64,000 nucleotides of DNA, from assembly GCF_003334815.1 (NCBI RefSeq), contig NZ_QOWO01000001.1; one strand, given 5' to 3'. Source of the stretch: Escherichia coli (GTDB lineage: Bacteria; Pseudomonadota; Gammaproteobacteria; Enterobacterales; Enterobacteriaceae). Position 1 is the stretch's first letter, and each line of letters starts with the position of its first letter. The notes beneath the pieces are model-generated. The model saw only the letters and a program-made list of their open reading frames with translations. It did not search any database and was not told the origin of the DNA. Position numbers and translations under genes: made by a program. Positions 36,711-37,838 of this stretch are shown here, in pieces.

Positions 36711-37838
36711 ATGGAATCGCTCTCAGAAGGAACCACAGCAGGCTACCAGCAAATCCACGACGGTATTATTCATCTGGTCGATAGCGCCCGGACGGAAACG
36801 GTACGTAGCGTTAACGCGTTAATGACCGCGACGTACCAGGAAATTGGCCGACGAATTGTCGAATTTGAACAAGGTGGCGAGGCCAGGGCTGCGTATGGTG
36901 CGCAGCTAATCAAGCGACTATCAAAGGATTTATGTCTAAGGTATAAGCGTGGGTTCTCTGCAAAAAACTTACGCCAAATGAGGCTTTTTTACCTCTTTTT
37001 TCAACATGTTGAAATTCGCCAGACAATGTCTGGCGAATTAACACCATTGGGAATTCCGCAGACACCGTCTGCAGAATTCCCATCGGCAAAGATTTGGCAG
37101 ACGCTGTCTGCCAAATCTTTCCCCTTGCCCAGGTCCACCTACGTCCGTTTACTTTCCGTTAAAAACGCTGACGCCCGCAGCTTTTATGAAAAAGAGACGC
37201 TCCGCTGTGGCTGGTCTGTTCGCCAGCTAGAGCGGCAAATTGCGACCCAGTTTTATGAGCGGACACTACTGTCACATGACAAATCAGCCATGCTGCAACA
37301 ACACGCTCCTGCCGAGACGCATATTCTTCCGCAACAGGCGATACGCGATCCCTTTGTGCTCGAATTTCTGGAATTGAAAGATGAATATTCAGAATCCGAT
37401 TTTGAGGAGGCGCTGATCAACCACCTGATGGATTTCATGCTGGAACTTGGGGATGATTTTGCCTTTGTTGGTCGGCAGCGAAGGTTACGCATTGATGACA
37501 ACTGGTTTCGTGTCGATCTGCTGTTTTTCCACCGCCGTTTACGCTGCCTGCTAATCGTCGATCTAAAAGTGGGCAAATTCAGCTATAGCGATGCCGGACA
37601 GATGAATATGTATCTCAACTACGCCAAAGAGCACTGGACGCTACCGGATGAAAATCCGCCCATCGGTCTGGTTCTCTGTGCAGAGAAAGGAGCCGGAGAA
37701 GCGCATTATGCTCTGGCAGGTTTGCCTAACACCGTTCTGGCAAGCGAATATAAGATGCAACTACCTGATGAGAAACGACTCGCAGATGAACTCGTTCGAA
37801 CACAGGCGGTGCTAGAGGAAGGCTATAGACGCCGTTAA
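36711..37838 (+). CDS. yhcG: DUF1016/YhcG-family PD-(D/E)XK nuclease-like protein
   Basis: 375-aa ORF. The C-terminal half carries a PD-(D/E)XK-like core, RVDLLFFHRRLRCLLIVDLKVGKF (D...D-L-K), encoded around 37509-37580. The N-terminal half contains three 13-aa I-x-Q-T-x-S repeats. Confidence 0.88.
   Translation: MESLSEGTTAGYQQIHDGIIHLVDSARTETVRSVNALMTATYQEIGRRIVEFEQGGEARAAYGAQLIKRLSKDLCLRYKRGFSAKNLRQMRLFYLFFQHVEIRQTMSGELTPLGIPQTPSAEFPSAKIWQTLSAKSFPLPRSTYVRLLSVKNADARSFYEKETLRCGWSVRQLERQIATQFYERTLLSHDKSAMLQQHAPAETHILPQQAIRDPFVLEFLELKDEYSESDFEEALINHLMDFMLELGDDFAFVGRQRRLRIDDNWFRVDLLFFHRRLRCLLIVDLKVGKFSYSDAGQMNMYLNYAKEHWTLPDENPPIGLVLCAEKGAGEAHYALAGLPNTVLASEYKMQLPDEKRLADELVRTQAVLEEGYRRR
37013..37120. 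repeat. Three tandem 39-bp units inside yhcG, each a 12-15-bp-stem palindrome
   Basis: First: AATTCGCCAGAC-AAT-GTCTGGCGAATT (37013-37039). Second: GGAATTCCGCAGAC-ACC-GTCTGCAGAATTCC (37050-37080, one mismatch). Third: AAAGATTTGGCAGAC-GCT-GTCTGCCAAATCTTT (37088-37120). The centres at 37026, 37065 and 37104 are exactly 39 nt apart. Confidence 0.95.

Follow-up and report, generated by a model that had tools for sequence, protein, structure and literature searches.

The question raised by yhcG in the stretch of Escherichia coli DNA analysed here (64,000 nucleotides of contig NZ_QOWO01000001.1, assembly GCF_003334815.1, hereafter the window) is why its coding sequence should contain three long palindromes in a row, and whether their symmetry belongs to the DNA or follows from a repeated peptide. 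The gene (36711..37838, plus strand, 375 amino acids) is 100% identical to copies in E. coli genomes, where it is annotated as yhcG. Its product has a DUF1016_N domain at residues 19–184 (PF17761, 130 bits against a cut-off of 32.8) and a YhcG_C PD-(D/E)XK nuclease domain at residues 208–360 (PF06250, 191.9 bits against 32.5), i.e., it is a member of this family, and it also matches the PADLOC candidate defence family PDC-S02 (E 2.8e-131). A repeat search recovered the same 27-nt repeat three times (37013-37039, 37052-37078 and 37091-37117), in frame and with start-to-start distances of 39 and 39 nt, in agreement with the positions and spacing of the original prediction. The units correspond to codons 101-113, 114-126 and 127-139, and the palindromes are given here without a strand. 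The first unit (39 nt, 37011-37049, EIRQTMSGELTPL) holds palindrome 1 (37013..37039, AATTCGCCAGAC AAT GTCTGGCGAATT), with perfect arms of 12–13 bp, and corresponds by homology to the one hairpin present in O157, in Salmonella and in distant homologues. The second (37050-37088, GIPQTPSAEFPSA) holds palindrome 2 (37050..37080, GGAATTCCGCAGAC ACC GTCTGCAGAATTCC), with arms of 14 bp and one C.A mismatch, and the third (37089-37127, KIWQTLSAKSFPL) holds palindrome 3 (37088..37120, AAAGATTTGGCAGAC GCT GTCTGCCAAATCTTT), with 15 perfect base pairs that can be extended to 18 at 94%. The arms differ between the units (TTCGCC, TTCCGC, TTTGGC), every one being self-complementary. The region 37005-37130 folds as three hairpins, both as RNA (−67.6 kcal/mol, z = −11.7) and as DNA (−45.4 kcal/mol, z = −11.5), with no shuffled sequence reaching either value. 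The units are tandem, head-to-tail 39-nt duplicates of one perfect or near-perfect palindrome of 25–33 bp, forming an in-frame coding tandem repeat (VNTR) with a copy number that differs among alleles; the same 39-nt spacing was found in three unrelated homologues.

The core CAGACNNNGTCTG occurs five times in the window, against 0.02 expected (0/100 shuffles). The two additional copies, both noncoding and not mentioned in the original prediction, each lie 15 nt past a stop codon. Copy 4 (37853..37879, AATTCTGCAGAC AGT GTCTGCAGAATC) follows yhcG, between the convergent genes yhcG and nanQ, and translates as ILQTLSGES when the yhcG stop is read through (P0021). Copy 5 (30714..30740, AATTCGCCAGAC TGT GTCTGGCGAATC) follows gltD, on the left border of the gltF-yhcADEF island. 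These two copies are the right and left ends, respectively, of a segment of ca. 7.1 kb that is missing from strains with an “empty” gltD-nanQ site (UTI89, ATCC 25922, ATCC 11775). UTI89, for example, reads gltD-palindrome-nanQ, with the left and right flanks of K-12. This deletion, exactly between the two extragenic copies, is shared by 946 E. coli genomes (17% of the complete ones). A further 718 genomes (13% of the complete ones) have a truncated yhcG allele with its breakpoint (..GCCAAAT|) at the 3' edge of palindrome 3, from which point the nuclease-encoding half has been replaced. The original prediction had asked whether the number of units varies among orthologues, and it does: E. coli alleles have one to three, O157 having a single one in a gene that is 78 nt shorter and other alleles two or three plus a degenerate unit. 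In one E. coli allele both arms have changed together (TTGTGC/GCACAA). Every enterobacterial orthologue has one unit or more in this position, so that, with the extra copies, neither part of the prospect raised there, that the symmetry would be lost in orthologues and that no further copies would exist, was borne out. In GTDB genomes, 7 of 21 disrupted genes break at the hairpin, against ca. 1.5 expected. In E. coli the palindrome is thus a hotspot of recombination and slippage, to which the alleles of one to three units, the 7.1-kb deletion and the truncation all belong.

The element extends far beyond the enterobacteria. A scan of species genomes with ATTNNNCAGACNNNGTCTGNNNAAT gave at least 120 loci in nearly all phyla, and 94 of the 132 matches listed were inside YhcG homologues with 28–62% identity, at query residues ~95–125. 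In viral and genome scans together, 124 of 174 matches were in or beside YhcG-family genes as detected by HMM. About a quarter of the pattern matches in other genomes were outside any recognisable DUF1016 gene, many of these orphan copies being gene fragments or scars. We also gathered 140 distinct full-length DUF1016/YhcG genes, sampled by nuclease-domain peptides only; the metagenome scan used a 7-sequence alignment, so that sample represents a narrower subfamily. In 106 of the 140 the strongest hairpin of the entire coding sequence was located at amino acids 80–129, and in 119 the hairpin at the homologous position, immediately ahead of the “SWSHY” motif, exceeded synonymous-codon resampling at p<=0.01. 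The mean hairpin score at the site was 9.2, compared to 3.4 after resampling. Most genes have one copy only. Of hairpins scoring >=9 there were 70 at the site; the rest of these genes, 120 kb in all, contained 5, and their flanks, 480 kb, contained 31. About 13–15% of the sampled genes lack the hairpin, indicating that it is dispensable in some lineages. Taken together, the palindrome is with high confidence a family-wide element of bacteria, archaea and phages that is maintained at the nucleotide level. Hairpin copies were also seen in an hsdM-hsdS spacer and directly upstream of rhuM. One locus (L286) has arrays of “hairpin + LSWSH” gene fragments upstream of an intact gene, and in another (L229) the gene's own hairpin recurs between a TATAAT box and the ribosome-binding site. 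Only 2 of the 140 genes had a family-type hairpin close to the promoter, so a classical promoter-operator role was rejected as a general one.

The encoded peptides differ wholly between subfamilies that keep the palindrome. Thus, CAATTGCGTCCGCAGTGCGGACGCAATTG encodes PIASAVRTQL, CAATTGTCGTGACGCTGTCACGACAATTG IVVTLSRQL, CAATTTGCTACACACTGTGTAGCAAATTG ICYTLCSKL and AAATTTTCCACTCACCGAGTGGAAAATTT IFHSPSGKF, and in one lineage this same palindrome is translated in a different frame, as EFARQCLTN. What is kept across the family is the outer (C)AATT..AATT(G) and the centre C-A-S-T-G, bases that coincide with three hydrophobic codons (Ile ATT, Leu/Val CTG/GTG and Leu/Phe TTG/TTC). The 6–7 bp between them vary freely and stay Watson-Crick complementary. 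It is the base-pairing potential and not the peptide that is conserved, the encoded residues passively following the changes of the arms. The suspicion that nucleic acid is the level on which the dyad symmetry was generated or selected, and that it does not simply follow from an I-x-Q-T-x-S motif, is supported by the codon resampling, which destroys the symmetry, by the unconserved peptide and by the use of a second frame. In the AlphaFold2 model of K-12 YhcG, residues 103–135 have pLDDT <50, and the three units are accordingly predicted to fall in a low-confidence linker between confident helices; the model, made with 84 sequences, has a moderate pLDDT of 66 (43 with close orthologues only), and its N-terminal domain is not interpretable. 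A PDB sequence search with YhcG gave no match. Foldseek against the PDB gave weak matches to PD-(D/E)XK nucleases (MGME1, Cas4, RecU, RecE) and nothing informative for the N-terminal domain.

The alignment of the family hairpins behaves as expected for a stem-loop. In the 13-bp helix 88% of the cells are paired, against 60% in shuffles (0/500 reach it), a fraction that is inflated because the hairpins were chosen by their Watson-Crick score; this choice does not inflate the diversity of pair types. Double-sided changes amount to 277, where 88 were expected, 12 of the 13 pairs covary, and single-sided changes, as would be expected under template switching, are few. The covariation score was 0.668, while shuffles gave 0.16 (0/500 as high) and slid controls no more than 0.13, although the aligned sequences are phylogenetically related and these shuffle counts are not probabilities. 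The A..T pair that flanks the loop in C-A-N-T-G is conserved in its columns and does not covary, and for this reason it does not separate a duplex palindrome from a hairpin.

We favour, with somewhat less than an even chance of being right, the explanation that the gene of a candidate defence nuclease carries an ancient cis element which is maintained at the nucleotide level and folds as DNA; in K-12 this element has been triplicated, and it recombines readily. The element would act in cis as folded DNA, either a single-strand hairpin or a small cruciform. Selection would keep the palindrome, helped by replication template switching between the arms that would turn a single mutation into a compensated pair. 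Its most likely role would be that of a structure-specific recognition site for the protein of its own gene, used for self-regulation or loading. Recognition by YhcG itself is a tentative proposal, hinted at by the prediction that its nuclease domain is closest to YraN and archaeal (Holliday) junction resolvases (PMC1189080), by the synthetic lethality of the yhcG deletion with hypomorphs of dnaB, dnaN and parE (PMC2672614) and by the upstream hairpin of L229. In its full form, a self-encoded DNA hairpin or mini-cruciform recognised by the YhcG-family nuclease, which would couple expression or activation to DNA topology or to the replication state and have the excision, duplication and module-exchange joint as a by-product, the proposal is likewise possible and not probable. 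Arms of 12–13 bp are short for stable cruciform extrusion, which counts against the favoured explanation. A partial parallel is provided by the ori iterons in gene O of phage lambda, which are also dyad repeats in the linker-coding part between two domains, where variation is tolerated. The O protein recognises duplex DNA in the iterons, whose sequence is conserved, whereas the arms of the yhcG element vary and keep complementarity alone.

Among the rivals, a hairpin in the mRNA is one of the two that survive best. It could be a site for ribosome pausing between the halves of the N-terminal region, for mRNA stability or processing or for translational self-regulation, with the extragenic copies serving as 3'-end stabilisers like REP elements. 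The element always lies within the transcribed coding sequence and so belongs to the mRNA, in a frame that is fixed in 93 of 96 unique hairpins, with the dyad centre at the first base of a codon. In addition, the RNA fold given above is very stable, both extragenic E. coli copies are located shortly after stop codons, there is a copy in the hsdM-hsdS spacer and the stems covary as those of structured RNAs do. However, wobble is tolerated no more than other mismatches, with 19 G.U cells against 120 other non-standard ones in the covariation alignment, about the ratio expected by chance. Among 198 unique hairpins in sense orientation, G.T is rarer than C.A (48 versus 106, and 1 versus 17 at the inner stem positions), the reverse of the expectation for a structured mRNA, and the tolerance of G.U on the sense strand that would be specific to RNA was not found, although coding constraints partly confound this comparison (avoidance of stop codons, as in CAG to TAG, and an amino acid preference for K, E or Q at one position). 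This asymmetry counts only against mRNA structure and is no proof of folding of the antisense strand. Furthermore, the Rfam 15 covariance models had no match at E<=1 in positions 35000-40000 of the window, no U-tract follows the stem, and the rearrangements seen in populations reveal activity at the DNA level. The lack of enrichment of wobble pairs and the breakpoints at the palindromes thus point, short of proof, to DNA over mRNA, and we consider it somewhat more likely than not that the element acts as DNA. Since the absence of G.U could also come from homogenisation by template switching, a role of the RNA keeps some weight, and we regard it as unlikely but not negligible.

Similarly unlikely is a functionless palindrome, an ancestral inverted repeat that perpetuates itself in a tolerant linker, its arms homogenised by replication template switching. 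The conserved Ile, Leu and Leu codons would anchor it against deletion, and the rearrangements would be its mutational cost. Template switching at inverted repeats is established in E. coli and has been reported to maintain hairpins (PMC7202029, PMC8794818, PMC8604942) and also to create them (PMC7202029, PMC8794818). In such quasipalindromes a mutation of one arm becomes a compensated pair and the stems stay perfect, which agrees with our alignment, where single-sided changes and G.U pairs are both nearly absent. The arms are strictly Watson-Crick and often perfect, the peptide is in a low-confidence linker and the noncoding scars remain perfect palindromes. However, template switching is a mutational process and not an element, and alone it fails to explain the retention of one site over such depth. 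Loss should be irreversible after two or three mismatches, and yet ca. 85% of the genes keep the hairpin at the same site, down to 30% amino acid identity. Comparable coding hairpins are almost absent elsewhere in these genes and in their neighbours, indicating that mutational drive alone rarely builds or keeps them. Finally, palindromes cost gene integrity, and selection would be expected against a useless one.

A less probable rival, which we consider doubtful, makes the palindrome a joint for recombination or cassette exchange that swaps, deletes or duplicates gene modules or the cargo of defence and type I restriction-modification loci. The cores of dif, loxP and hix have inverted arms of 11–13 bp and a short centre, and DNA is deleted between their copies; the 11–13 bp arms round a 3-bp centre of the yhcG element resemble this geometry. 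The attC site of integrons works as a folded single strand, its structure mattering more than its sequence, and it is 57–141 bp long, has extrahelical bases and is located at the ends of cassettes and not inside a conserved ORF. The E. coli deletion and the replacement of the nuclease half, the hairpins in the hsdM-hsdS spacer and next to rhuM and the fragment arrays of L286 would all agree with such a joint, as would the enrichment of DUF1016 genes beside the targets of programmed inversions (odds ratio 17; PMC9881135), but this last could be explained by co-residence with hsdS shufflons. Unlike recombinase cores, the arms vary even inside one gene, differing among the five copies of the window as they do across the family. 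No recombinase appears to be consistently nearby, DUF1016/YhcG genes being reported to lack a conserved neighbourhood (PMC1189080), and between gltD and nanK in the window we found no integrase or invertase. Most genes have a single copy. When the identities of the N- and C-terminal parts were compared over 12,557 gene pairs, some were discordant (e.g., L193/L200, 51% versus 88%), but no clean breakpoint appeared at the hairpin, the nucleotide identity along discordant pairs shifting gradually and not at that point.

The possibility of a mobile palindromic element (RPE-, MITE- or REP-like) inserted in frame in yhcG is very remote. Copies are found outside the gene, past gltD and past yhcG, and about a quarter of the matches elsewhere are outside recognisable DUF1016 genes, but many of these orphans are gene fragments or scars. 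The original prediction had likened the palindromes to Rickettsia palindromic elements (RPEs), with which they share palindromic DNA within an ORF, in frame and with a peptide that the protein tolerates. RPEs are ~100–150 bp long, dispersed over many unrelated genes of one genus and missing from orthologues. The yhcG element, in contrast, has 25–33 bp and occupies one homologous position of one gene family across phyla. All five copies in the window belong to this locus, and E. coli genomes have 1–5 places each (median 2), every place examined being gltD-nanQ, in a count that took arms close to those of unit 1 and would miss very different ones. The enterobacterial orthologues all have the unit and 85% of the distant homologues have the hairpin, so that the analogy does not hold. 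The loci listed from the species-genome scan (at least 120) each came with a different record title, and no genome among them therefore showed amplification. A likeness to REP/BIME sequences and their RAYT genes exists in that these are short palindromes (20–40 bp), some just past stop codons, tied to one nuclease-type gene flanked by copies. However, REPs are described as extragenic and present in many copies in each genome, one of their ends bearing a GTAG or CGTC tag (PMC3733652), while the yhcG element has few copies per genome, is mostly intragenic (124/174) and has neither tag next to the stem in the unit sequences. The associated protein is a PD-(D/E)XK nuclease and not a tyrosine HUH enzyme as RAYT.

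A pure tandem repeat of the protein (I-x-Q-T-x-S), with codons symmetric by chance, has practically no remaining probability: the units are in frame and variable in number and three hydrophobic positions are conserved (I, L/V, L/F), but resampling does not reach the observed scores, QTxS is missing in many subfamilies that have the palindrome, and a second frame and noncoding copies exist. We rejected both the mobile-element reading, which is contradicted by the family position, and the protein-repeat reading, which is contradicted by the resampling, the second frame and the noncoding copies. The coding palindromes of Nematomorpha mitochondria (PMC6649704) and the PARCELs (PMC2996958) are similar in being inverted or dyad repeats inside coding sequences with both arms translated, but they are lineage-specific and either far longer (up to 284 bp) or arrayed as 25-residue units, often in membrane-targeted proteins, and they are not confined to a single site of a single enzyme family; their abstracts describe no deep covariation across phyla. 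The YhcG units have 13 residues, are mostly single copy and belong to a nuclease in which no membrane signal was noticed.

The element is a clear natural case of dual coding: the encoded peptide drifts, whereas in bacteria of many phyla, in archaea and in phages a DNA fold inside the ORF is conserved. It provides a first concrete handle, in the form of a candidate substrate to test, on YhcG/DUF1016, a very large uncharacterised nuclease family that is listed by PADLOC as a candidate defence gene (PDC-S02) and often occurs in type I restriction loci and on mobile elements; in E. coli its gene has genetic links to the replisome (PMC2672614). Full-text literature searches covering yhcG, DUF1016, PDC-S02 and coding palindromes gave no paper that describes the element. 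If recognition by the own protein were true, a conserved DNA fold within the ORF would define the family as much as the protein does. The nuclease, a widespread anti-phage candidate, would then be tied to DNA topology or replication state, and defence and type I restriction loci would carry a ready-made joint at which modules can be excised, duplicated or exchanged. The palindromes account for the polymorphism of the gltD-nanQ locus in E. coli, whose breakpoints are at the palindromes, and they offer a good test bed for whether a palindrome can be preserved through deep time by template switching and nothing else. They are also a practical annotation marker, and a warning that gene calling and assembly will often leave these genes split or truncated at the hairpin. 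With regard to defence, a preprint reports one PDC-S02 gene tested against T4, T5 and T7, and four systems that protected. In the YhcG allele of the window, Arg replaces the Trp of the PWS(H/T)Y motif, a residue that is nearly invariant elsewhere and is present, as Trp141, in O157; judging from this change, the allele may be inactive.

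The gene yhcG lies at 36711–37838 on the plus strand of the window. Its 375-aa ORF, 100% identical to the annotated yhcG in E. coli genomes, has Pfam matches to DUF1016_N (residues 19–184) and to YhcG_C, a PD-(D/E)XK nuclease domain (residues 208–360). A repeat search found three copies of a 27-nt palindrome in the gene, starting at 37013, 37052 and 37091, i.e., with a spacing of 39 + 39 nt. When the flanks are included, the stem lengths agree with the original prediction: 12–13 bp and perfect, 14 bp with one C.A mismatch, and 15 bp and perfect. A 126-nt segment folds into the three hairpins with z = -11.7 as RNA and -11.5 as DNA. 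The window contains five occurrences of the core CAGACNNNGTCTG, where 0.02 would be expected, and two of the five are noncoding extragenic copies, one at 37853–37879, 15 nt 3' of the yhcG stop, and the other at 30714–30740, 15 nt 3' of the gltD stop. No Rfam match to the palindrome region was obtained (window 35000–40000, E ≤ 1).

We found yhcG in 4468 of the 5426 complete E. coli genomes, with alleles that vary at the repeat. The number of 39-nt in-frame units ranges among orthologues from one (O157:H7, Salmonella) to three plus a degenerate one (some Escherichia alleles). The O157:H7 gene, with its single unit, is shorter by 78 nt (2 × 39) and reads ..EIRQTVSGELTPL|PWSTY.., and a single unit is also present in the orthologues of Citrobacter and relatives. 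The allele of TK3887 has two palindromes, the first with both arms altered (AATTGTGCAGAC ACT GTCTGCACAATT), and in one protein extended by stop-codon read-through (P0021) the downstream palindrome copy is translated as ILQTLSGES. A search with unit-1-like arms matched each E. coli genome at 1–5 places, with a median of 2; all the places examined were at the gltD-nanQ locus, so the palindrome with such arms is not a dispersed repeat. In arrangement A of this locus (946 genomes, including UTI89, ATCC 25922 and the type strain) the order is gltD-palindrome-nanQ, without yhcG. Arrangement B, carried by O157, consists of gltD, a 183-nt spacer, yhcG, the palindrome and nanQ, and in Salmonella diarizonae gltD is likewise directly followed by yhcG. 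Arrangement C, that of the window, has a gltF-yhcADEF island between gltD and yhcG, starting with the palindrome at 30714. Around its one palindrome, arrangement A joins the left flank of C (gcgaggtaacaat) to the right flank of C (..taaaacga..ttttaagccattaaatc), which marks A as a deletion whose ends coincide with the two extragenic copies. In a fourth form of the locus, carried by 718 genomes, yhcG is retained over its first 406 nt, all three palindromes included; from the 3' edge of palindrome 3 (..GCCAAAT|) onward it is replaced by ca. 450 nt with an unrelated 101-aa ORF, and the nuclease-encoding half is lost. In E. coli, deletions, truncations and changes of unit number have their breakpoints at palindrome copies.

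The island itself (gltF-yhcA-yhcD-yhcE-yhcF, window ca. 30741–36580) is absent from the O157 arrangement, and its right edge, near 36580, blends into the region upstream of yhcG. An example of the replacement junction is found in E. coli GTEN_24 (locus L001, 2907–3370), where the 101-aa ORF is annotated as “transposase”; no Pfam match was found for this ORF of the replaced alleles.

A pattern scan with ATTNNNCAGACNNNGTCTGNNNAAT, in which three variable positions per arm were left free, matched 39 loci in viral contigs, about 24 of them inside a distant YhcG homologue, and at least 120 loci in a one-genome-per-species collection. The species-genome matches listed came from Bacteroidota, Planctomycetota, Verrucomicrobiota, Proteobacteria, Firmicutes, Acidobacteriota, Spirochaetota and archaea. 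Among the matches listed, 94 of 132 were inside YhcG homologues (28–62% identity), always near query residues 95–125, and an HMM of 71 full-length homologues placed 124 of 174 inside or adjoining such a gene. Since the pattern fixes the core sequence, we drew additional samples blind to the hairpin, by alignments of the nuclease domain alone (A2 and A3), which selected loci via peptides like F[LI][LIM]E[LM]GxGF and D[IVL]GQM. Of the 140 distinct full-length genes obtained in this way, 106 had the strongest hairpin of their whole CDS within aa 80–129. At this site, just 5' of the SWSHY codons, the mean hairpin score was 9.2, versus 3.4 when the codon usage of each gene was applied to re-encode the same peptide (p ≤ 0.01 in 119 genes). 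Of the hairpins scoring at least 9, the site had 70, the other 120 kb of the same genes had 5, and 480 kb of flanking DNA had 31. One perfect hairpin was present in 86 genes and two or three in 11, and 43 had no hairpin with a perfect stem of at least 7. Several units occur also in other lineages, with the 39-nt spacing again in loci L087, L145 and L155. We are confident that the palindrome is family-wide and, in the part of YhcG genes that encodes the linker, kept at the nucleotide level. In K-12 it has expanded in tandem, at 39-nt steps, into the triplet.

The core differs between subfamilies: CAATTGCGTCCGCAGTGCGGACGCAATTG (PIASAVRTQLNW), CAATTGTCGTGACGCTGTCACGACAATTG (IVVTLSRQLSW), CAATTTGCTACACACTGTGTAGCAAATTG (ICYTLCSKLSW), AAATTTTCCACTCACCGAGTGGAAAATTT (IFHSPSGKF) and AAAAGGTGAGACGCTGTCTCACCTTTT are examples. 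Therefore, the Q-T-x-S motif is no more than what one core variant encodes locally. The outer (C)AATT..AATT(G) and the centre C-A-S-T-G are kept, as is the complementarity of all positions between them; the kept positions correspond to three hydrophobic codons (Ile, Leu/Val and Leu/Phe), and the dyad centre is a codon first base in 93 of 96 unique hairpins. One lineage (L024, L025, L038, L222 and L238) has GAATTCGCCAGACAGTGTCTGACGAATC at the same site but translates it in another frame, as EFARQCLTN. The encoded peptide is a passenger, and the original prediction that the symmetry was selected or generated at the nucleic-acid level is borne out by the loss of score upon re-encoding and by the variation of the peptide between subfamilies.

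Covariation was analyzed in 78 distinct hairpins aligned on the dyad (A4). Along the 13-bp helix 88% of cells were paired versus 60% in shuffles (0/500 reached it), a percentage inflated by the choice of hairpins by Watson-Crick score, which does not inflate pair-type diversity. Double-sided changes affected 12 of the 13 pairs (277 cells versus 88 expected), and the covariation score was 0.668, whereas shuffles gave 0.16 and slid controls did not exceed 0.13. Hardly any G.U pairs or single-sided changes occurred; the 19 G.U cells and the 120 other non-standard cells stand in roughly the ratio expected by chance. Among 198 sense-oriented unique hairpins G.T was rarer than C.A (48 and 106; 1 and 17 at inner stem positions), a skew for which coding constraints, e.g., on CAG to TAG, account in part. 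The aligned hairpins (the 78 and the 198 sense-oriented) do not show the tolerance of wobble pairs that an mRNA structure should have, and this, together with the DNA rearrangements at the E. coli locus, makes an element acting at the DNA level somewhat more probable than one acting in mRNA.

The palindrome would act as folded DNA, kept by selection with the aid of template switching between its arms, a known E. coli mutational process that is reported to create and maintain hairpins (PMC7202029, PMC8794818). The likeliest partner would be the nuclease of its own gene, predicted to be structure-specific, and recognition by YhcG itself is a tentative proposal. A role in mRNA, against which the missing wobble tolerance speaks, is improbable; it keeps some weight because template switching would yield equally strict complementarity whatever the function. 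We give no better chance to a functionless palindrome that perpetuates itself, and a smaller one to a palindrome that is primarily a recombination joint. The original analogy with Rickettsia palindromic elements, which insert in frame, is not supported, and the mobile-element reading is contradicted, given the homologous site across the family and the lack of dispersal of unit-1-like copies in E. coli, where those examined all lay at gltD-nanQ. A reading of the units as protein repeats is contradicted by cores that differ while complementarity is kept, and by the re-encoded scores (3.4 vs. 9.2).

Among the 78 hairpin-bearing genes listed from species genomes (L043–L162), 48 were intact, 13 frameshifted and 8 reduced to the N-terminal part, and 7 of 21 disrupted genes break at HMM positions 97–121, versus about 1.5 expected. 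Many models of PDC-S02, the PADLOC candidate defence family matched by yhcG, are N-terminal fragments ending at YhcG residues 101–113, the hairpin position. DUF1016 genes in these species genomes are often pseudogenes.

About one quarter of the pattern matches listed were outside any recognisable DUF1016 gene, many of them intergenic or in gene fragments (e.g., ..IFQTLSGKLSWSHYAKLL in L138) and some clustered (L019, L026, L078, L113, L114 and L129). Two type I restriction operons that lack a DUF1016 gene carry orphan hairpins: L084 has one between hsdM and hsdS (5775–5799), and L129 has a tandem of three (5941–6022) immediately 5' of rhuM, a RhuM-family gene next to hsdS. The hsdM-hsdS spacer and hsdS-adjoining sites are reported positions of DUF1016 genes in type I systems (PMC9881135). 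In a metagenome contig (L286, Ga0209628_10055666, ca. 1085–1560) at least five fragments of the type hairpin plus LSWSH or LTWTHY, partial copies each from a different allele, precede an intact DUF1016 gene, a layout that resembles silent cassettes or successive replacement scars. In a viral contig (L229, ca. 2085–2125) the hairpin of a DUF1016 gene recurs as a second copy, AAAAAGTTGCGACACTGTCACAACTTTTT, between a TATAAT box and the ribosome-binding site of that gene, an operator-like position found in only 2 of the 140 genes.

The AlphaFold2 model of YhcG (84-sequence alignment) is of moderate quality (pLDDT 66). Residues 103–135, encoded by the three units, have pLDDT <50 and lie between confident helices (84–97 and 141–178), and Foldseek returned weak matches to PD-(D/E)XK nucleases only. 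Codon 141 (37131–37133), at the near-invariant Trp of PWS(H/T)Y, is Arg (AGG) in the K-12-type allele of the window and TGG in O157, Salmonella and Citrobacter; judging from this substitution, the window allele may be functionally impaired. A full-text search of the literature found no mention of the palindrome in YhcG genes. Published predictions place the nuclease domain nearest to YraN and to the Holliday-junction resolvases of archaea, and report no conserved neighbourhood (PMC1189080). YhcG has been found associated with HsdMRS, McrABC and integrases, and a yhcG deletion shows synthetic lethality with hypomorphs of dnaB, dnaN and parE (PMC2672614); conjugative elements and phages carry DUF1016 genes (PMC4316617). 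A stationary-phase non-coding RNA, G0-10703, is divergent from yhcG and overlaps its 5' UTR by 128 bp (PMC7967276); the yhcG upstream region, where this transcription was reported, corresponds to window 36580–36710.
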